Below, piece by piece: positions 1-63,070 of a stretch of DNA of 64,000 nt. The translations under genes and the position numbers were made by a program. The notes under the pieces are model-generated. The model searched no databases, had not been told where the DNA came from, and saw only the letters and a list, made by a program, of their open reading frames with translations. Origin of the DNA: Escherichia phage VEc20; sequence record MN022785.1; one strand, 5' to 3'. Each line of letters starts with the position of its first letter. Positions within the stretch are counted from its first letter, which is position 1.

Positions 1-61
1 GACCCATAAATAAATCTTTATCTTCTGTCATGAAGATAATACCAGCTGATAATGTTTTCAT
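1..61 (-). CDS. 5'-partial ORF (N-terminus MKTLSAGIIFMTEDKDLFMG..., runs off window start); possibly Nudix/NudE-like
   Basis: ATG at 61-59 overlaps the TGA stop of ORF 58..546 (ATGA coupling); position matches T4 nudE next to the e.x genes. Confidence 0.3.
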   Translation of the reverse strand, partial: MKTLSAGIIFMTEDKDLFMG

Positions 62-546
62 TTTAATTTCCTGCATTCAGTGATAAAGTTATTTAAATTT
101 TGAGCATATTTCTTTTCATCAAAAATCTTTTGTTGTCTGCGTAAACGCCATGGCATTTCAATGAACATACGCCATATTCCTGATAATACTGCTGCTGTAA
201 AAATATTAACAAGTATAGTTAAAAGAACCCAATCTCCTATTCTGTCCATTGGATTTTTTATAAAAAAGTAAAATACGAACGATGATATAGGAAGACTAAT
301 GATATACCACAGAAGAACCTTCTTATCTGTGAACCAATCAGCATTCGTTAACTTAGCGCGACCGTTTTGAATACATACGAACTTATCATCTGTTACAGTA
401 AATGGCTTAGCTGCTTGATATCCCATTCTAAACTCCCTAATCAACAAATTTTTCATATCTTCGGAACAACCATTCCAGTCAACTCTATCAACTGAAATGC
501 CATCATCCCCATCATCTAAATCATACCAGCGAGTTTTTAAAATCAT
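58..546 (-). CDS. small membrane protein (T4 e-region-like), C-terminal TM helix
   Basis: ORF track 162 aa; hydrophobic segment; ends ...FITECRKLK with ATGA overlap to next gene. Confidence 0.6.
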   Translation of the reverse strand: MILKTRWYDLDDGDDGISVDRVDWNGCSEDMKNLLIREFRMGYQAAKPFTVTDDKFVCIQNGRAKLTNADWFTDKKVLLWYIISLPISSFVFYFFIKNPMDRIGDWVLLTILVNIFTAAVLSGIWRMFIEMPWRLRRQQKIFDEKKYAQNLNNFITECRKLK

Positions 547-905
547 TTAATTTTCCTACAATCACTCACAAACTCTTTCATTGACTCATTTTCAATATAA
601 GACATGTAGCTATTATATTCTTTTAATTGTATTTTGTAATCTTTTTTTCTTTGCCAATTTATTTTAAAATTATCATAATGAAAATATAAAATGATACCAA
701 AGAATGAAAACAATGAAATAATTTTAGTATAACAAAGCTCACTCCAAACTTCTGTTATATTTACTGTGCCGTCGATGTTTAAAATAAGACAGTCAATTAA
801 CAATCCAAAAAGACTACCCGCAAGAGCTGCAGCCAACGCTACAGCAAAAATTAAAAATGACTCAGGAAGCGAATATTTGACTTTATTTAGTTTTGGCTTT
901 TGCAT
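543..905 (-). CDS. small membrane protein, two predicted TM helices
   Basis: ORF track 120 aa; hydrophobic segments; ends ...EFVSDCRKIK; ATGA overlap with downstream ORF. Confidence 0.6.
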   Translation of the reverse strand: MQKPKLNKVKYSLPESFLIFAVALAAALAGSLFGLLIDCLILNIDGTVNITEVWSELCYTKIISLFSFFGIILYFHYDNFKINWQRKKDYKIQLKEYNSYMSYIENESMKEFVSDCRKIK

Positions 906-1279
906 CGTGATTCCTTAACAAATTTCATAATTTCATCAAATTCATACATATCTAGCTTAAGCTGGTGTTCCTTTTTAATCTTTTTACACTGAGCTTTCCA
1001 ATCACGTACACGTTTACGATAATGTCTTCCTTGATACCAGTATCCTACCCAATTTACGGGTACTAATAAAAGTGGAACTATTAATGGAAGAATTAGCATT
1101 AACACAAGTATTTCGCCAGAATCAATATCAGTCATAACATCTAAAACACCTCCAATAATCAATAGAATTACAAATGATATGAGTATAACAGGACCTATTA
1201 ACACATCAGTAGAAATTATCTGACGCTTTGGTTCATACTTCACAGGTTTACTTGGAAGGTATAGTGATGGTTTTGACAT
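887..1279 (-). CDS. small membrane protein, two predicted TM helices
   Basis: ORF track 887..1300 trimmed to MSKPSLYL start with RBS AAGGAAT inside upstream gene tail; ends ...KFVKESRCKSQN. Confidence 0.55.
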   Translation of the reverse strand: MSKPSLYLPSKPVKYEPKRQIISTDVLIGPVILISFVILLIIGGVLDVMTDIDSGEILVLMLILPLIVPLLLVPVNWVGYWYQGRHYRKRVRDWKAQCKKIKKEHQLKLDMYEFDEIMKFVKESRCKSQN

Positions 1280-1850
1280 ATTCTCTACATTCCTTAACAA
1301 ATTTTTCTAGTAATAAATCACTTTCAAAATTGGGATTTTCTACAAATTTATCAAAAAGATCATCAACAATAGTTAAGATATTCTTTTTACTAAGAATACG
1401 TTTATTTTCATGCTTCGTTTCAGAATCAACTATAAGAGTAAAGAAATATTTCTTGCCCTGAAATTTTACAGTAGTATCAATATAAAATAAATTTGACTTT
1501 TGTAAATTACGTTTAAACCATGCGTCACTTAAACTATAAACACCGAGATAATCAAAATCGTCGTTTAAATAACAAACCGTCCATTCAGGAGAAATGAAAT
1601 CAGTAAATTCAACATCAAAATCACACGTCAATGAATGAATTGATTCAATACTGTTAATGAGTATTCCAGGACGTATTAAAGACTTTTTACCTCTAGAAAA
1701 TCTTCCGGAAAGGCTTTCATCAGTTTCATATGAAGACCCCCAATAGTAATTACGTCCTTCTGCCATGCGTTTAAGAGCATTTAGTAATTGGTCTGGAACA
1801 TCAACCTGTCTTTGGAACTCTTCAAACATTGAATTGAAATCACTTTGCAT
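1248..1850 (-). CDS. hypothetical protein
   Basis: ORF track 202 aa; second ATG has AGGA RBS; C-terminal ...KFVKECREY junction motif. Confidence 0.6.
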   Translation of the reverse strand: MQSDFNSMFEEFQRQVDVPDQLLNALKRMAEGRNYYWGSSYETDESLSGRFSRGKKSLIRPGILINSIESIHSLTCDFDVEFTDFISPEWTVCYLNDDFDYLGVYSLSDAWFKRNLQKSNLFYIDTTVKFQGKKYFFTLIVDSETKHENKRILSKKNILTIVDDLFDKFVENPNFESDLLLEKFVKECREYVKTITIPSK

Positions 1851-1897
1851 TTTCATTCCTATTTACTCCAAGTATAAGGGGCCGAAGCCCCTTATCA

Positions 1898-2491
1898 TTA
1901 TTTCAGAGAATTAATGTATTCCTGAACATCGGCAGAGGTAGTTTCAACCCCAGAAATATTACCGTTAAAGGTTTCAACTCGAGCAAGGGTATCTTCAATA
2001 TCAACCTTAGTCAGTGCTGCAATTTCAACTACATCATCAGCAGTACTAATTCCAAGGGCATTTGCTGCACGAGTTTCACGGATATATTCCAATTTAACCG
2101 CAAGTTCTTGACGAGCATCATCTAACTCAACTACTTTCTTGGCGATTTCAATTCGCATTTCAGCATAACCGTCAGCCTTAGTAGTCAACTGCTCAGCTGT
2201 TCGACGATATAGTAAACCGAGTTTAGCATGCATTGTTACATCTTGGCCTTCGGAAAGAAGTTTACGAATTTCACGCTCTTTTGATTCGGCCTGTCGATTC
2301 TTTTCGATAACAAGTTCACGAATACGTTTTTCTTCGTTAATAGATTTAACAGAAGCAGTTTTTAGATCTTTAATTTTATCAAGTAGTTTTGCTGCTGCAG
2401 CAGTATACTGTTCTTCGACAGATAGATTTTTAGCCATAGCAGAACCAAGTTTAGTGCGAATAAACTCAACAATTTTCTTCAGTGTGTTCAT
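1898..2491 (-). CDS. coiled-coil protein (possible PspA/IM30-like pattern, unverified)
   Basis: 197 aa, strongly charged heptad-rich sequence; followed by GGGGC-UUCG-GCCCC hairpin. Confidence 0.6.
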
Positions 2492-2593
2492 AGTATTTCC
2501 TTAGGTTAATTGAGATTTAAAATCCGTAGGAGTTATAATACTCTATCGTCAAATTATAGGCTCATAATATCTCAATCATGAGCCTGCGTAAAC

Positions 2594-2857
2594 TTATTTC
2601 ATATTATTGAAATATTCTTCTGCGATTTCGTCGTTATCATGGTAAACTTTAGAAGACAGTTTAACATAACCTTCTGCTGTGAACATATTAATCACAACTT
2701 TTACAGTATACCACTGACCGTCTTCATTACCCATTACTGCGTAAGTTTCAAACATCGGATGATCAGGACCGATAACTTTAATATCATTCACTGTACGACC
2801 GAAATCTTCTGAAACGCATTTCATAAAGAAGTTGAACAGTTCGCCGTAATTATCCAT
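2594..2857 (-). CDS. hypothetical protein (87 aa)
   Basis: ORF track 2594..2911 trimmed: start MDNYGELF at 2857 lies downstream of promoter 2902-2930 and has GGAG RBS. Confidence 0.55.
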   Translation of the reverse strand: MDNYGELFNFFMKCVSEDFGRTVNDIKVIGPDHPMFETYAVMGNEDGQWYTVKVVINMFTAEGYVKLSSKVYHDNDEIAEEYFNNMK

Positions 2858-2901
2858 TTCATTCTCCAAGTTGTTTTTCTGTATCAGTAGTTGATAGTTG
2901 T

Positions 2902-2930
2902 ATAGTACCATGGAAGAACAGGGATGTAAA
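2902..2930 (-). promoter_or_regulatory. sigma70-like early promoter candidate (-35 TTTACA, 17-nt spacer, -10 TACTAT)
   Basis: plus-strand tgtaaa ... atagta upstream of ORF 2594..2857. Confidence 0.5.
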
Positions 2931-3062
2931 CAGTTTTGTGAAAAAATTTTTAAAAAGTTTTAGGGAATTCTAGGGTCAGGAGGGACAATTAAAAGGTAGG
3001 ATAATATATTATAAAGGGTATAAACTAAATGATGCCTAGAGAGACAAGGAAAGGCCTAGATA

Positions 3063-3091
3063 CCAAAAAGCCCCAACCTTTTGGTCGGGGC
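3063..3091 (-). terminator. rho-independent terminator after the internal-protein-like gene
   Basis: minus-strand hairpin AGCCCCGACC-AAAA-GGTTGGGGCT followed by TTTTTGG. Confidence 0.65.
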
Positions 3092-3099
3092 TAAGAATG

Positions 3100-3561
3100 T
3101 TATTTGATTTGTTTAGCAGACCAAATGCGGTCTTTGATGATTTTTTGGAGGTCTTCAACATACTCTAGGTCATGAGCATGTGGATTATCTTTGAAACTAT
3201 GAGCTCGCGCAAGTTTCTGGCCTTCGGTCTTAATTATCAAAAGTTCTTTAAGAATTGCTTCATACCTAGAGATAATTCCTTTAGCAATATTTTTTTCTTG
3301 TGCTGCTTTAGGGTCAGCCTTAGGAGCAGGTTTACCAGAAGGTTTTTCGAAAGCCGCGCCAGTAGCAACCAGGCTTTTCCAGGCGGTGGTAACATAGTTA
3401 CCCACAAAGCCTTCAGCTCTCATATCGTCGTAGAACTTGTACCGAGATTCGTCAGAAGCATCTTTATAAGAATATTTACCAGCTTTAATAGCAGCAGTTG
3501 CTACAGCGCGAACATCTGAAGCGGATGCTTCGGTCATTAAAAATTGAGCATAAGTTTTCAT
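3100..3561 (-). CDS. internal-protein-like late protein with capsid-targeting-type N-terminus (MKTYAQFLMTE)
   Basis: 153 aa; AGGAAA RBS; own late promoter TATAAATA upstream and rho-independent terminator downstream; N-terminus resembles T4 IP leader MKTYQEFIAE. Confidence 0.65.
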   Translation of the reverse strand: MKTYAQFLMTEASASDVRAVATAAIKAGKYSYKDASDESRYKFYDDMRAEGFVGNYVTTAWKSLVATGAAFEKPSGKPAPKADPKAAQEKNIAKGIISRYEAILKELLIIKTEGQKLARAHSFKDNPHAHDLEYVEDLQKIIKDRIWSAKQIK

Positions 3562-3589
3562 TGTTATTTCCTGTGTTAATTAACTCATC

Positions 3590-3597
3590 TATTTATA
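3590..3597 (-). promoter_or_regulatory. T4 late promoter TATAAATA (gene 3100..3561)
   Basis: plus-strand tatttata; AGGAAA RBS and ATG 29 nt downstream on minus. Confidence 0.6.
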
Positions 3598-3598
3598 C

Positions 3599-3627
3599 TA
3601 AAAAGCCCCAACCTTTCGATCGGGGCT
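3599..3627 (-). terminator. rho-independent terminator ending the tRNA/stable-RNA transcription unit
   Basis: minus-strand hairpin GCCCC...GGGGC followed by TTTTT, then the late promoter. Confidence 0.6.
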
Positions 3628-3674
3628 AAGCCTTGCGGCAACCTTGTCGGGGTTCCACCTGCTAAGGCAAGTGT

Positions 3675-3840
3675 TTGTACGAAACGCCGGGATTCGAACC
3701 CGGTTATTAAGTAGTTGACGCTACTCAATATTTTTAAAAGGCCATATCTCGACCATATCCGAACGTTCCGTCAAAAACGCTACTCGGCTTACGGCAAAGA
3801 TATTTCCTCGAATCGATAATTCGGTGCGCCGTTTCTGCTG
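3675..3840 (-). ncRNA. tRNA-like stable RNA (T4 species 1/2-like); boundaries approximate
   Basis: minus-strand T-arm CCGGG-TTCGAAT-CCCGG followed by acceptor-like CGTTTCG; complementary GAAACG about 150 nt upstream; no ORF. Confidence 0.35.
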
Positions 3841-3934
3841 TGATAGTAAAGAGCCAGAACACAGTAAAACTGTGGGAGGAAACTATACTCCAGGGAACAT
3901 CAGTCCGACGACTTACCGGTAGCGACCCGGTTTC

Positions 3935-4285
3935 TTAATATTCTTTTAAAGAATCAATATATTCACGGCGTTTACGCCACAAATCAATTGCTTCATACGC
4001 GGATTCAGCATTTCGAATTAGCCGGCATTTATGTAAAGACTTATGATTTTGATATTGTGTAGATAACGGAATTGTATCTAAAAGGTCTTTACGATCAAAA
4101 TATTCGTAACCATCTAAACCAAATGAACGATTTTTGAGAAATTGCCAATGACCATATTCGTTTTCGACATAAACATAATCTGCATGCTGATAAAGCAAAT
4201 TAATTACACGTTCAGAAATAACAGTATCATTATGATTAAAATAGAATGTTAAATCATGAACTACTAAATAAACATTACCTTTCAT
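3935..4285 (-). CDS. hypothetical protein (116 aa) embedded between tRNA-Arg and the stable RNA
   Basis: ORF with GAGGAAAAT RBS directly before ATG; no recognisable motif. Confidence 0.6.
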   Translation of the reverse strand: MKGNVYLVVHDLTFYFNHNDTVISERVINLLYQHADYVYVENEYGHWQFLKNRSFGLDGYEYFDRKDLLDTIPLSTQYQNHKSLHKCRLIRNAESAYEAIDLWRKRREYIDSLKEY

Positions 4286-4303
4286 ATTTTCCTCACTTAT
4301 AAT

Positions 4304-4379
4304 TGGTCGAGGCAGTAGGGATCGAACCTACGACCTAGGACTTAGAAGGTCCTTGCTCTTCCTTCTGAGCTATGCCCCG
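4304..4379 (-). tRNA. tRNA-Arg (anticodon TCT)
   Basis: hand-folded cloverleaf: acceptor CGGGGCA/TGCCTCG, anticodon loop CTTCTAA, T-arm GTAGG-TTCGATC-CCTAC, CCA encoded. Confidence 0.85.
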
Positions 4380-4383
4380 TAAT

Positions 4384-4459
4384 TGGGGTGACCGATGGGA
4401 GTCGAACCCATGACTACGAGAATCACAATCTCGAGTTCTACCAACTGAACTACGGCCAC
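4384..4459 (-). tRNA. tRNA-His (anticodon GTG)
   Basis: acceptor GTGGCCG/CGGTCAC, anticodon stem CGAGA/TCTCG loop TTGTGAT, T-arm ATGGG-TTCGACT-CCCAT, CCA encoded; no encoded G-1. Confidence 0.7.
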
Positions 4460-4573
4460 ATTAATACCTACTCCAACAATCAAGATGTCTTCACACGAAA
4501 TTAAGAGAAGAGTGATCAGTTCAACCCCTATAATCGCGTCAAGTAGATATTAATGTGACAGTTGTCACAAATT

Positions 4574-4648
4574 TGGCGGACGTGATAGGATTCGAACCTA
4601 TAACCAATCGCTTAACAGGCGATCGCTCTGCCATTGAGCTACACATCC
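4574..4648 (-). tRNA. tRNA-Asn (anticodon GTT)
   Basis: acceptor GGATGTG/CACGTCC, anticodon stem ATCGC/GCGAT loop CTGTTAA, T-arm ATAGG-TTCGAAT-CCTAT, CCA encoded. Confidence 0.8.
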
Positions 4649-4652
4649 AAAT

Positions 4653-4739
4653 TGGTGGGGAGTGGTGGAGTCGAACCACCCGAGTCGCAATGACAATGAA
4701 TTTACAGTCCACACCGCTACATCTACGGGATAACTCCCC
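4653..4739 (-). tRNA. tRNA-Tyr (anticodon GTA), class II with long variable arm; D-arm fold uncertain
   Basis: acceptor GGGGAGT/ACTCCCC perfect, T-arm GGTGG-TTCGACT-CCACC, anticodon loop CTGTAAA with G-U-containing stem, 87 nt. Confidence 0.55.
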
Positions 4740-4748
4740 AAATTAATT

Positions 4749-4823
4749 TGGTGGCCCTGGGTGGAATTGAACCACCATCTGGCGATTATGAGTCGCTTGC
4801 TTGAACCTTCCAGCTACAGGGCC
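4749..4823 (-). tRNA. tRNA with anticodon CAT (Met-type; probably the T4-like lysidine-modified tRNA-Ile)
   Basis: acceptor GGCCCTG/CAGGGCC, anticodon loop CTCATAA, T-arm GGTGG-TTCAATT-CCACC, CCA encoded. Confidence 0.8.
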
Positions 4824-4824
4824 T

Positions 4825-4900
4825 TGGTGCTGATTGACGGAATCGAACCGCCGACCTTCTCATTACAAGTGAGTTGCTCTACCTACTGAGCTAAATCAGC
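4825..4900 (-). tRNA. tRNA-Thr (anticodon TGT)
   Basis: acceptor GCTGATT/AATCAGC, D-arm GCTC-AGTAGGTA-GAGC, anticodon loop CTTGTAA, T-arm GGCGG-TTCGATT-CCGTC. Confidence 0.85.
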
Positions 4901-4905
4901 AAAAC

Positions 4906-4995
4906 TGGCGGAGGCGATAGGATTTGAACCTATGAGTCGCCGGAGCGACTGCCGGTTTTCAAGACCGGTGCATTAAACCACTCTGCCACGCCTCC
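4906..4995 (-). tRNA. tRNA-Ser (anticodon TGA), class II
   Basis: acceptor GGAGGCG/CGCCTCC, anticodon stem CCGGT/ACCGG loop CTTGAAA, long variable arm, T-arm ATAGG-TTCAAAT-CCTAT. Confidence 0.85.
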
Positions 4996-4997
4996 AG

Positions 4998-5071
4998 TCT
5001 CCGTGGCAGGATTTGAACCTACGACATTCTGCTCCCAAAGCAGACGCTCTACCAAACTGAGCTACACGGAG
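4998..5071 (-). tRNA. tRNA-Pro (anticodon TGG); CCA not encoded
   Basis: acceptor CTCCGTG/CACGGAG, anticodon stem TCTGC/GCAGA loop TTTGGGA, T-arm GTAGG-TTCAAAT-CCTGC. Confidence 0.8.
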
Positions 5072-5081
5072 TAAATTAAAT

Positions 5082-5155
<74 letters not shown>

Positions 5156-5160
5156 AAATT

Positions 5161-5247
5161 TGGTGCGAGAAGTGGGACTCGAACCCACAAGGAAATCATT
5201 CCGCAGCATTTTAAGTGCTGTGCCTTTACCAATTTGACCATTCTCGC
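5161..5247 (-). tRNA. tRNA-Leu (anticodon TAA), class II
   Basis: acceptor GCGAGAA/TTCTCGC, anticodon stem CAGCA/TGCTG loop CTTAAAA, T-arm GTGGG-TTCGAGT-CCCAC, 87 nt. Confidence 0.85.
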
Positions 5248-5248
5248 G

Positions 5249-5321
5249 CTGGGAATAAAGGACTCGAACCTTTGCATCTAGCAGTCAAAGTGCTATGCCT
5301 TACCAACTTGGCTAATTCCCA
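5249..5321 (-). tRNA. tRNA-Gln (anticodon TTG); CCA not encoded
   Basis: acceptor TGGGAAT/ATTCCCA (U1-A72), anticodon stem TAGCA/TGCTA loop CTTTGAC, T-arm AAAGG-TTCGAGT-CCTTT. Confidence 0.8.
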
Positions 5322-5390
5322 ATTATTAACAAAGGCTCTCTAACAAGAACCCTTGATGATAGAGGGTATTAATCAGTGCGGTATGAGTTA

Positions 5391-5416
5391 ATAATAACAA
5401 ATAATTCTTAAAGCAT
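5391..5416 (-). promoter_or_regulatory. candidate T4 middle-type promoter (MotA box ATGCTTTA, 12-nt spacer, -10 TATTAT) upstream of the tRNA array
   Basis: minus-strand TATGCTTTAAGAATTATTTGTTATTAT about 65 nt upstream of tRNA-Gln 5' end. Confidence 0.35.
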
Positions 5417-5418
5417 AT

Positions 5419-5706
5419 TTACCATTTATGATAATACGTATTTACGATACATTCAAGACCCAAAGGATTCTTGAAAATATTATATTCAAGAGGACCTTTT
5501 TCCGTTTCAATAAAGAAATCAAAGTTAACTGTGTTAAATTTACGGTCTTCCTTCACTAATTTAACTTGAGAAGATGAACGGTCAATGTAAACCTTTTCAA
5601 CTTCAAAACAGGTTAAAATGCCATAATCATCAATCAAGGCTTTAGCTGCTTCTTGATCATATTTATATCCATTTTCAATGGATGATACTTTAGCATAAAG
5701 AATCAT
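5419..5706 (-). CDS. hypothetical protein (95 aa)
   Basis: ORF track; start overlaps stop of upstream ORF (coupled); no recognisable motif, no capsid-targeting leader. Confidence 0.55.
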   Translation of the reverse strand: MILYAKVSSIENGYKYDQEAAKALIDDYGILTCFEVEKVYIDRSSSQVKLVKEDRKFNTVNFDFFIETEKGPLEYNIFKNPLGLECIVNTYYHKW

Positions 5707-5708
5707 TA

Positions 5709-6107
5709 TCAGCCTTCATCAACAATAGTATGAGTATTGGCATTTACGATTTGCCACCAGTCAAAGCGATTAGAACCCATCGGTTTGTTTTCATTTTCTT
5801 TGATAATGTCACGGAGTTCATCTTCAGAGAATGCTTTAGCGATTAAATCGGTATACCCACCACGTGGATAATAATTATCACCTGCAAACAAAAGGAAATT
5901 TACCTTCCCGGAAGGAACATATGCTTCCTTAGGATACTTGTTTCCTGCGTGGTCAACCACTTCAATATAACGGTAAGGAATATCGGTTCTTTCAACCCAT
6001 TGCCATGCCGCCGCAGGGGAATCGAAAGCATCTACACCTAAACGATTATCTTCATCTTTAGACGGATTATTTTCGTAATCCGCATATACATAATATTCAA
6101 CGTTCAT
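5709..6107 (-). CDS. hypothetical protein (132 aa)
   Basis: ORF track; start overlaps stop of the 61-aa ORF. Confidence 0.55.
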   Translation of the reverse strand: MNVEYYVYADYENNPSKDEDNRLGVDAFDSPAAAWQWVERTDIPYRYIEVVDHAGNKYPKEAYVPSGKVNFLLFAGDNYYPRGGYTDLIAKAFSEDELRDIIKENENKPMGSNRFDWWQIVNANTHTIVDEG

Positions 6108-6292
6108 TATTCACCTTTAGAAATTTTATCCATAACGATAGCAATTAAACCAATTAAAAATGCTACTACAAGTGAAAAAACATTTTCTGCCGTAGTCAAT
6201 AATCCGCATATAAATCCAACAAACATTGAAAAACTGAAAGCGGAAGCAGAAATTGCAATAGCAACATTTCGAATTAATTCACAACGTTTCAT
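6107..6292 (-). CDS. small hydrophobic (membrane) protein, 61 aa
   Basis: ORF track 6107..6433 trimmed to MKRCELIRN with GAGGAG RBS, downstream of promoter copy at 6321-6349. Confidence 0.55.
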   Translation of the reverse strand: MKRCELIRNVAIAISASAFSFSMFVGFICGLLTTAENVFSLVVAFLIGLIAIVMDKISKGE

Positions 6293-6320
6293 TTTATTCT
6301 CCTCAGTAGTTGATAGGGTA

Positions 6321-6349
6321 ATAGTATCACTACCCCATCTAAAAGTAAA
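6321..6349 (-). promoter_or_regulatory. sigma70-like early promoter candidate (-35 TTTACT, 17-nt spacer, -10 TACTAT), module copy 1
   Basis: plus-strand agtaaa ... atagta with imperfect inverted repeat GATAGGGTA/TACCCCATC flanking the -10. Confidence 0.5.
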
Positions 6350-6350
6350 C

Positions 6351-6584
6351 TTATTTTTTACGAAAAATTGATTTATTTTCTGCTGCCCATTTTTCAATAA
6401 CTGCAGCAGGACCAGTAACAACAATTTTATCACCGTAATCTTCTGCGGCGAGTTGACCGAAATTATCTAATGCATCACGAAGAACTCCATGAGGCATTTC
6501 ACCCATTTTATCTTTCTTGCCGGTGTAAATAAACTCAACTTTTACATCAGAAGATTCAGCGATAAACTCTTTGAAAGTTTTCAT
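6351..6584 (-). CDS. internal-protein-like small protein with capsid-targeting leader MKTFKEFIAE (77 aa)
   Basis: N-terminus matches T4 IP leader pattern with I-A-E cleavage-type site; ORF-track start 6596 is an alternative in-frame ATG. Confidence 0.6.
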   Translation of the reverse strand: MKTFKEFIAESSDVKVEFIYTGKKDKMGEMPHGVLRDALDNFGQLAAEDYGDKIVVTGPAAVIEKWAAENKSIFRKK

Positions 6585-6621
6585 TTTAGTTTCCATTCGA
6601 TTGTTTTGTTTTGATAGGGTA

Positions 6622-6650
6622 ATAGTATCACAACTAAAACCCTATGTAAA
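6622..6650 (-). promoter_or_regulatory. sigma70-like early promoter candidate (-35 TTTACA, 17-nt spacer, -10 TACTAT), module copy 2
   Basis: plus-strand tgtaaa ... atagta; inverted repeat ATAGGGT/ACCCTAT. Confidence 0.5.
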
Positions 6651-6663
6651 CAACTTTGTGAAA

Positions 6664-6921
6664 TTATTTTAAATCTTCTAATCGTTTCTTCATCTTAGAA
6701 CCATTTTTAGCAATTTCTCCTGCATCGGAGCATAATGCTAAAAGTGCTTTAACTTTCGTTTGGTCTCCTTTAAAAGATGAAGGATCTACTGCAGCAGCAA
6801 GTTCTTTAATACGAGAGAAAAGACGCTCAGCTTCAGCTAAAGCCATTCCAAGCTTTACTTCCATACCGTGGGAAGATTCAGTGATAGTAGTTTTTGCAGC
6901 AAACTCTTTGAAAGTTTTCAT
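6664..6921 (-). CDS. internal-protein-like small protein with leader MKTFKEFAAKTTITE (85 aa)
   Basis: AGGAAAATAAAA RBS; N-terminus paralogous to 6351..6584, mature part unrelated. Confidence 0.65.
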   Translation of the reverse strand: MKTFKEFAAKTTITESSHGMEVKLGMALAEAERLFSRIKELAAAVDPSSFKGDQTKVKALLALCSDAGEIAKNGSKMKKRLEDLK

Positions 6922-6952
6922 TTTTATTTTCCTAATTAATTTTGATGAGGTA

Positions 6953-6981
6953 ATAGTATCACTACCTCATCAGTATGTAAA
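6953..6981 (-). promoter_or_regulatory. sigma70-like early promoter candidate (-35 TTTACA, 17-nt spacer, -10 TACTAT), module copy 3
   Basis: plus-strand tgtaaa ... atagta; perfect 9-bp inverted repeat GATGAGGTA/TACCTCATC flanking the -10. Confidence 0.5.
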
Positions 6982-6994
6982 CAACTTTGTGAAA

Positions 6995-7679
<685 letters not shown>

Positions 7680-7680
<1 letters not shown>

Positions 7681-8405
7681 TATAGTACCTTTAGTGTATT
7701 TTTAATTTTAGAAAAAAGTTCTTCAAGAGAACCATCGTTTGTAATTACTAAATCGCCATCACGAATTGGCAATCCAGCTTCTGTAATATGTGTATCATTG
7801 GATTTTTGACCAGGACGAACTACATGAATTACTGTAGCACCCATCGCCCTAGCCGCATCCATTTCATGATCTTGACGGGTATCAGGAACGATATAATAAT
7901 CATAACCTGAGTTAAATTTATCAAGATAATCTAAAGCAAATAATTTTACCCAGTACATGCGGTCGAAGTTATTAACAATCAAATCCGTACCTAGGGCTTG
8001 CATCAGACGACGGACTGACCATTGATCTTCAATATTATTTATAACGTCAATAATCTTGTTAAATGCTACGGAATTAACTGATTCTTGTCCTTCGTCATCA
8101 AAAACAAACACACCTTTAATTGGGCTTTTACCATTAAGATAGCAAAATGCTTGTTCCATAATCGTGATTACTTCTAATTTAGTCAGATTTAAATTAGTCT
8201 CACGATCATAGTCAATTCCTTCAAACTCTTTACGAGTTAAGCAAGGATAATCGGTGTTTGCTGCAAATACTCCCCATGCATAAGCCAATGCATCCTTAAT
8301 AGGACCAGCAAGTTGGTATTTAACTGCAGAATAATTGCTCATGATAAAATCAGCAGTAGTATCTTTTCCACTACGCTTTACACCGCTTAAAAAGATTAGT
8401 TTCAT
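7680..8405 (-). CDS. 1: deoxynucleoside monophosphate kinase
   Basis: P-loop GVKRSGKDT; start MKLIFLSG with GAGGAG RBS gives 241 aa as T4 gp1 (ORF track start 8444 is an extension). Confidence 0.85.
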
Positions 8406-8454
8406 GTGTTTCTCCTCAAATTTAATTAAGATTATAACACACAAAACTGAAGCA

Positions 8455-8985
8455 TTAAACTTCCGCTATAATTTTTCCATCTTTTTCTACTTGAAAATAC
8501 GTATAAGGAATCGTTGCTGTACATACTAAAGCCGGGTCTGAATCTTCTGTGTAGCTAAATTCTACTTCAGATAGGTCAGAAACCCAAGGCTTATAAAAAT
8601 TTATTGACATCACGATTTCAGTTTTGCTATTATCTAAAATGTAAAGCGTAATGTATTCAGGACCTGTTTTTTGGGCAGTATTTTCACCTGTAAGATAGTT
8701 GCTAGTTCCTAGCATCCATTCATACATTCCTATCCATGACTTAAGTTCTTCATCAACTATAAATCTCACGATGAGTGGATCGTACTCAAATGTAGCACCT
8801 GGACGTTGTGCTCGGCCCAGTCCAAACGGCCCAGTCACGGTATCGGTAACAGGTATCCTAATTCCAGGAATAGGAACTGACTGAGCATTTAAAGTAAAAG
8901 CAGATGTAGTATTACTATGTGGTATTGATACTACAAAGTTAGTTGTATTTGCTTGGTTAAAAATTTGTTGCAGTGCTTGCGACAT
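8455..8985 (-). CDS. 3: gp3 tail tube terminator / sheath stabiliser
   Basis: 176 aa from internal ATG with GAGGAAT RBS (T4 gp3 length); gene order 1-3-2-4. Confidence 0.75.
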   Translation of the reverse strand: MSQALQQIFNQANTTNFVVSIPHSNTTSAFTLNAQSVPIPGIRIPVTDTVTGPFGLGRAQRPGATFEYDPLIVRFIVDEELKSWIGMYEWMLGTSNYLTGENTAQKTGPEYITLYILDNSKTEIVMSINFYKPWVSDLSEVEFSYTEDSDPALVCTATIPYTYFQVEKDGKIIAEV

Positions 8986-9091
8986 ATATTCCTCATAATG
9001 CTTTATAACTGTTGGTGGTATAATGGGTCTAAGTCCCTTCCATTCAATTCCATTTAGAACAAACAACAGAAAAGAATGGAAGATAATAGAA

Positions 9092-62572: not shown

Positions 62573-62627
62573 GATGTTTAATTGCGGTACAGGTATATAA
62601 TATCATGTCCTGTACCAAAGTAAACAA

Positions 62628-62987: not shown

Positions 62988-63016
62988 ATACTATCACAAA
63001 GGAACCATACTGTAAA
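62988..63016 (-). promoter_or_regulatory. sigma70-like early promoter candidate (-35 TTTACA, 17-nt spacer, -10 TAGTAT)
   Basis: same architecture as the ip-locus modules. Confidence 0.5.
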
Positions 63017-63037: not shown

Positions 63038-63065
63038 AAATAAAAAAGGACTCCCGAAGGAGTCC
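63038..63065 (-). terminator. rho-independent terminator
   Basis: minus-strand hairpin GGACTCC-TTCG-GGAGTCC followed by TTTTTTATTTT. Confidence 0.65.
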
Positions 63066-63070
63066 TCAAC

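Follow-up and report, generated by a model that had tools for sequence, protein, structure and literature searches.

Covarying stem-loops overlap the early promoters of the internal-protein locus in Escherichia phage VEc20 and correspond to published PeSL-like cassettes

Internal proteins are injected anti-defence effectors, and GmrSD-type restriction is blocked by IPI* and Ip2. Elements resembling promoter-early stem-loops (PeSLs) have been described as shuffling the genes of such proteins (Arbiol 2010, PMC2839356; Comeau 2014, PMC4122927). PeSLs were defined in the phages RB49 and phi1, where they show both promoter and terminator-like activity in reporters (Arbiol 2010, PMC2839356). In one case an RB49-type stem-loop cut downstream lacZ like a strong terminator, and elements whose stem-loop may overlap the -10 box are listed as a subclass (PMC2839356). 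According to the summary given in the same paper, Repoila 1994 dealt with "PeSL-like sequences" at two T-even internal-protein loci, which have T4 early promoters and weaker, AT-rich stem-loops (PMC2839356). PeSLs were subsequently extended to PST and T4 (Comeau 2014, PMC4122927).

The window analysed here, a stretch of 64,000 nucleotides from Escherichia phage VEc20 (MN022785.1), is a Tequatrovirus (T4/T6-like) genome; identity to Tequatrovirus genomes reaches 98.8% for a 1.8-kb query from it (window 5700-7500). The minus-strand gene order at 6107-7453 is 57B, Ip5, an Ip6-like internal protein and trna.4 (Table 1), the T6-type (Ip5 + Ip6) version of the polymorphic ipI locus, whose internal-protein content differs among T4, RB6/RB14, T6, Kha5h and HY03. 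As Repoila 1994 is summarised in PMC2839356, the flanking blocks of the T-even internal-protein loci lie in the same locus (57B, internal-protein genes, trna.4) and likewise place early promoters and AT-rich stem-loops of variable size around interchangeable internal-protein genes, which share an N-terminal targeting motif, as they do here. By that summary nothing essential differs, the window having Ip5 and Ip6 as in T6, and T4 a single ipI. Three modules in the window each combine a T4-type promoter, a stem-loop overlapping it and a location in a small-gene gap of the hyperplastic region, and the Ip5 module matches the one that precedes ipI in T4 at every base. Since PeSL-like cassettes have been published, the finding is a correct rediscovery: the feature is the known PeSL-like cassette of the T-even internal-protein locus, which the initial annotation of this stretch did not recognise.

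The modules resemble the PeSLs of RB49 and phi1 in their succession of A/T tract, early promoter, stem-loop, Shine-Dalgarno sequence and ATG within short gaps of the hyperplastic region, in flanking variable small ORFs, and in the attenuator and recombination-site roles proposed for them. In contrast, RB49 PeSLs have near-consensus TTGACA/TATAAT promoters and stems of G-runs and C-runs. Their authors regard the T-even elements as analogues, not homologues, and terminator and mini-circle activity was shown only for RB49/phi1 (PMC2839356). The PST/T4 PeSLs are alike in phage group, in proposed role and in their consensus TTTACW-N17-TAYWAT (PMC4122927), which all three modules fit. However, the figure legend of that paper puts the stem-loop just upstream of the promoter, whereas the stem here, and in most modules of the survey described below, surrounds or takes in the -10 and extends as far as the start site.

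A conserved core, GGTAATAGTATCAC, had been noted in three module copies, and there are exactly three plus-strand matches, at 6317, 6618 and 6949. On the minus strand, which is the coding one, each module reads GTTTAC, 17 nt and TACTAT, with TG before the -10, a -35 of TTTAC[A/T] and an A/T-rich tract upstream; all three are T4-type early promoters before small genes of the internal-protein locus. The order of the cassette is A/T-rich tract, strong early promoter (TGnTACTAT), Shine-Dalgarno sequence and ATG, at most about 70 nt from the upstream stop codon. The -35 comes 1-13 nt after that stop codon, and the ATG 22-32 nt after the hairpin. As for the Ip6-like gene, its ORF has an in-frame ATG (6584-6596, minus strand) four codons before the MKTFKEF targeting motif (METK-MKTF...), and its start is probably 6584.

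Table 1. Features of the window; start sites are predicted, inferred from spacing.
Feature	Position	Strand	Details
Extra promoter/hairpin cassette	2558..2592	-	TTTACG, 17 nt, TATTAT; stem AGGCUCAUGAU/AUUAUGAGCCU; -15.7 kcal/mol, z -4.5
Early promoter of e.8, hairpin-less	2902..2930	-	homologous to internal-protein modules on both sides; z +0.30
trna.4 gene	6107..6292	-	61 aa, predicted membrane protein; served by third module
trna.4 module hairpin	6312..6339	-	GAUGGGGUAGUG-AUAC-UAUUACCCUAUC, 12 bp, three G.U
trna.4 early promoter	6321..6350	-	GTTTAC(T), 17 nt, TACTAT 6326-6321; predicted start ~A6314
Ip6-like internal protein gene	6351..6596	-	family match begins at second ATG (6584, MKTFKEF...)
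96-nt direct repeat	6584..6679; second copy 6915-7010		77% identity; repeat families D1-D3
Ip6 module hairpin	6614..6645	-	AUAGGGU (6645-6639) with ACCCUAU (6620-6614), plus inner 4-bp helix
Ip6-like gene early promoter	6622..6651	-	GTTTAC, 17 nt, TACTAT 6627-6622; predicted start ~A6615
Ip5 internal head protein gene	6664..6921	-	85 aa; N-terminal MKTFKEF capsid-targeting motif
Ip5 module hairpin	6943..6972	-	UGAUGAGGUAGUG-AUAC-UAUUACCUCAUCA, 13 bp, two G.U; encloses -10
Ip5 early promoter	6953..6982	-	GTTTAC 6982-6977, 17-nt spacer with TG, TACTAT 6958-6953; predicted start ~A6946
Gene 57B	6995..7453	-	stop codon 13 nt upstream of -35 of first (Ip5) module
Extra promoter/hairpin cassette	62585..62624	-	TTTACT, 16 nt, TATTAT; stem UGGUACAGG/CCUGUACCG; -12.3 kcal/mol, z -4.0
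Early-type promoter, no significant hairpin	62988..63016	-	TTTACA, 17 nt, TAGTAT; z +0.14

The core is flanked by inverted repeats in all three modules, as the initial annotation had claimed, but their complementarity on the plus strand is not complete for GATAGGGTA/TACCCCATC (6312-6339), where one A.C mismatch of the plus strand turns into G.U pairing in the minus-strand RNA. The repeats are real and, once G.U pairs are allowed, longer than had been proposed, forming stems of 13 bp and 12 bp around an AUAC loop in the Ip5 and trna.4 modules; the "conserved core" itself thus belongs to the stem. The arms of the middle repeat, whose end had been placed at 6644, are at 6614-6620 and 6639-6645. 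Fold energies, which had been suggested as a check, are significant against dinucleotide shuffles for the minus-strand RNA of all three modules: -17.4 kcal/mol for Ip5 (z -6.1, 0/200 shuffles; plus strand -13.7), -13.7 kcal/mol for Ip6 (z -3.7) and -16.1 kcal/mol for trna.4 (z -4.5). The plus-strand fold of the trna.4 module is not better than shuffles (-7.6 kcal/mol, z -1.07), and within the window clear strand specificity is confined to this module. In the Ip5 module the predicted start site falls within the 3' arm. The 5' arm of the Ip6 module abuts the -35 and is in a different register, while its 3' arm is the same as that of the trna.4 module, so that one shared 3' arm has two solutions, with 5' arms at different positions. 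An Rfam search of positions 1-9000 reached the curated score for tRNAs only, and nothing of any strength overlapped the hairpins. Ten tRNA genes above that score lie at 4307-5321 (minus strand), downstream of trna.2-trna.4, and constitute the T-even tRNA region; a weaker tRNA-like match lies in the cluster at 4657-4739.

To place these modules in a wider context, 60 loci (666 kb) around 57B were sampled from IMG/VR, metagenomes and GenBank T-even phages, and modules were picked solely by their -35/-10, A/T-rich upstream tract and downstream Shine-Dalgarno/ATG. Exact-pattern scans of IMG/VR (TTTAC-N15-TGATACTAT and TAGTGATACTATTA) were dropped, the matches listed being, by contig name and size, mostly unrelated contigs with few T4-like ones. 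Structure of -9 kcal/mol or lower across the -10 is present in 69 of the 110 distinct modules (63%); the threshold is reached by 2.4% of shuffles and by 8.9% of 40-mers drawn at random from these loci. The modules fall into 29 sequence clusters, 13 of which are structured, and their stems are unrelated, as exemplified by GAGGACA/UGUCCUC, GGUAGGACUAU/AUAGUCCUACC, AGGUCUAUAG/CUAUAGACCU and AGGCUCAUGAU/AUUAUGAGCCU; the position after 57B is by itself occupied by no fewer than eight different stems across the loci. About a third of promoter-like modules, good promoters among them, are hairpin-less. In unrelated stems the dyad axis takes two main positions, either at the -12/-11 step, between the first and second bases of the -10, as in 28 modules, where the -10 is mostly in the loop, or some 3 bp before the -10, as in 24 modules, where the -10 is part of the 3' arm. 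A further family with a TGTACA -35 (L281:9348, L296:9537 on the minus strand, L005:11806 and relatives) has a short CACC-loop-GGUG hairpin that lies entirely within the spacer, short of the -10, and represents the "between -35 and -10" PeSL subclass. In many other loci (L003, L008, L011, L012, L014 and others) the 57B stop overlaps the start of the first internal-protein gene (TAAATG) and no cassette is found; the cassette after 57B is therefore dispensable.

Paired changes that preserve the stem had been claimed for the three copies of the window. Pairing is kept at all three arm differences between the Ip5 and trna.4 modules, and the paired changes among the three copies comprise a G-C to A-U replacement, the only truly compensatory change, and one change from G.U to G-C; the strong evidence for covariation comes from related phages. 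In a -10-anchored alignment of more homologous copies in one register, whose rows were chosen for folding in the tested register and mix about seven related families, so that counts are not independent events, both sides change in 7 of the 12 pairs. The cells with both-side changes number 61, against 21.5 +/- 4.9 in shuffles (0/500 shuffles reach this value), and pairing stands at 88% in the true register but at 36-63% in slid registers. Independently, RNAalifold predicts 8 pairs, 5 of them covarying and 7 without a broken cell. With unrelated stems in the same place at many promoters and arms that covary, the proposal of selection for a structure is supported.

Which transcript would contain that structure is indicated by its position. 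Among survey modules the stem ends between about -2 and +6 of the predicted start; since this start lies inside the 3' arm, both arms would be present only in transcripts arriving from upstream. Moreover, a same-strand ORF ending at most 70 nt from the -35 (observed gaps 0-19 nt) lies just upstream of 68 of 69 structured modules as compared with 19 of 41 unstructured ones, and by cluster the figures are 12/13 and 5/16 (Fisher p = 0.0018), an association that would be inflated if some "unstructured" modules are false promoter calls. In addition, the RNA folds (-14 to -17 kcal/mol) are two to three times stabler than the DNA folds (-3 to -8 kcal/mol). The strand test counts 37 G.U against 9 A.C cells, but 14 G.U against 9 A.C independent events (p = 0.40), and the comparison of sense with antisense folding energy by cluster gives p = 0.13; the preference for the sense strand is suggestive and becomes non-significant when relatedness is taken into account. 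Of the two mechanisms offered by the initial annotation, an operator for a dimeric regulator or an RNA hairpin in read-through transcripts, the second fits best, given the start in the 3' arm, the link to ORF ends and the stability of the RNA, and the data favour a hairpin on upstream or read-through RNA over an operator. Overall, the observation made in that annotation is partly confirmed and its interpretation partly supported.

The same -35/17/-10 architecture had been reported to recur at 2902-2930 and 62988-63016, with palindromes in the equivalent place. The architecture is present at both sites, but the equivalent palindromes around the -10 are not: CCATGG is wholly inside the spacer instead of bracketing the -10, GATAATACTATC is not a palindrome, with only GATA/TATC matching, and folding at the two sites is not better than in shuffles. 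The first site, the promoter of e.8, comes after a non-coding stretch that corresponds to stable-RNA genes (rnaC/rnaD) in the T4 and RB6 annotation. It is a natural negative control, with stable-RNA genes rather than an ORF upstream, and no stem. The approximate location of the rnaC/rnaD stable RNAs in T4 and RB6 holds, in the window, a pair of canonical minus-strand terminators, 3069-3092 and 3604-3627, which are separated by about 535 nt and are almost the same in sequence (AGCCCCGAxC-loop-GGUUGGGGCU, then UUUU). Directly upstream of the 62988-63016 promoter, at 63042-63067 (minus strand), is a canonical UUCG-tetraloop terminator, GAGGACUCC-UUCG-GGAGUCCU followed by UUUUU. This site does fit a pattern of a terminator in place of the hairpin; across the survey the pattern is not supported, as an upstream hairpin plus T-run terminator is found at 2 of 41 hairpin-less promoters and 1 of 69 structured ones (p = 0.55). 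Two genuine further cases, absent from the initial annotation, are the cassettes at 2558-2592, which begins 1 nt past the stop of ORF 2594-2911, and at 62585-62624.

Thus, the modules are likely to be PeSL-like cassettes in which the hairpin acts on upstream or read-through RNA and insulates the transcription units, with homology available for internal-protein swaps. The free positions of the promoter, in the spacer and from just after the -10 to about +4, are kept complementary, so that polymerase arriving from upstream (57A/57B or the previous cassette, early or late) would transcribe a hairpin of 12-13 bp as the last part of the upstream cistron. The transcripts of the module itself would begin in the 3' arm and hence be free of the hairpin. 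Beyond structured RNA with which the upstream cistron ends, the function that we infer is that of a weak attenuator, without a U-tract, or of a barrier defining and protecting the RNA 3' end; the attenuator role is drawn by analogy with the GC-rich RB49 stem-loop. Expression from each cassette would in this way be partly insulated. In the DNA, the conserved cassette of about 100 bp, together with the shared codons of the targeting sequence, may provide homology for swapping internal proteins between phages. The UP-like tract, promoter/hairpin and leader all fall within a 96-nt direct repeat, and a repeat next to it extends over the beginning of the targeting-sequence codons; the two together could serve as portable homology flanking each internal-protein gene.

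Cassettes are indeed mosaic. The T4 trna.4 module consists of the 5' half of the window's Ip6 module and the 3' half of its trna.4 module, and three cassettes in related loci (L017:6846-6890 and 7177-7221, L026:6805-6850) have arms of two stem types and have lost the outer stem (-4.9 to -7.0 kcal/mol); these chimeras resemble products of recent crossing-over within the loop. Exchanges that seem to have taken place at or in the loop, along with an RB49 mini-circle crossover mapped inside the loop of a stem-loop (Arbiol 2010, PMC2839356), would also be expected if the repeat acted as DNA, either as a structure-specific recombination site in the form of a cruciform or single-strand hairpin (attC-like, mini-circles) or as an aid to -10 melting. 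The clustering of the dyad axis at two fixed positions relative to the -10, of which -12/-11 is where promoter melting begins, means that a DNA role could follow, and the lack of significant strand asymmetry is consistent with it. Nevertheless, DNA hairpins are weak, their loops measure 4-18 nt, and the plus strand of the trna.4 module folds no better than shuffles; the link to the upstream same-strand ORF end is unexpected for a pure DNA site, and homologous recombination over repeats of about 100 bp accounts for the mosaics without any structure. We therefore consider such a DNA-level element unlikely, and it is likewise unlikely that the stem works in DNA in addition to RNA, as a structural promoter element or as an attC-like folded site for excision and integration of internal-protein gene cassettes. 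Integron attC sites are alike in being repeats of variable sequence and conserved structure that flank single mobile ORFs, with circular intermediates proposed, but the T-even case is without an integrase or evidence of structure-specific recombination and has long shared sequence homology.

It is quite unlikely that the stem-loops are efficient Rho-independent terminators, as which all three are labelled in the closest GenBank record, that of vB_EcoM_ASO78A (by WebGeSTer, and by TransTermHP for one). One RB49 PeSL stem-loop did behave like a strong terminator in a lacZ fusion (PMC2839356), and the modules, like Rho-independent terminators, close a cistron with a stable RNA hairpin, but they differ in the absence of a U-tract and in overlapping a promoter. 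The window stems are AU-rich and are followed by the tails AAAAUUAA, AAAACAAA and AACUACUG, with no T-run. Likewise, the 8 nt downstream of the hairpin contain at most 4 T in each of the 69 structured modules, which falls short of the threshold of five and makes efficient intrinsic termination unlikely, and a terminator scan did not call the module hairpins.

Template-switch replication errors are a mutation mechanism described in T4. The stems might be a non-functional by-product, quasi-palindromes perfected by such errors and spread by recombination; template switching yields apparent compensatory changes without selection, and many of the copies are related by recombination. However, at least 13 unrelated stems occupy the same relative position, almost only next to ORF ends, their frequency is 63% against 2-9% in controls, and one 3' arm has found partners in 5' arms at two different places, which together make this origin very unlikely. 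Least probable is the operator reading of the initial annotation, here for a dimeric repressor that would shut off the early promoters: although the repeat overlaps the -10 and +1, the classical operator position, and the literature has yet to explain how T4 early promoters are shut off (PMC2988021), the five promoters of the window carry five different arm sequences without a recurrent half-site, relatives add at least 13 unrelated stem families, orthologous promoters change both arms and keep complementarity rather than sequence, G.U-type imperfections are tolerated, and arm register and loop length (4 to 18 nt) vary, so that no single dimeric protein could read the repeats.

In summary, what is added here to the published PeSL-like cassettes is the frequency of the hairpin, the formal covariation of its arms, the absence of a U-tract and the link between the hairpin and the end of an upstream same-strand ORF; together, these results narrow its likely role to upstream or read-through RNA. 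The flanking cassettes, for their part, are thought to let T-even phages quickly swap their internal-protein effectors.
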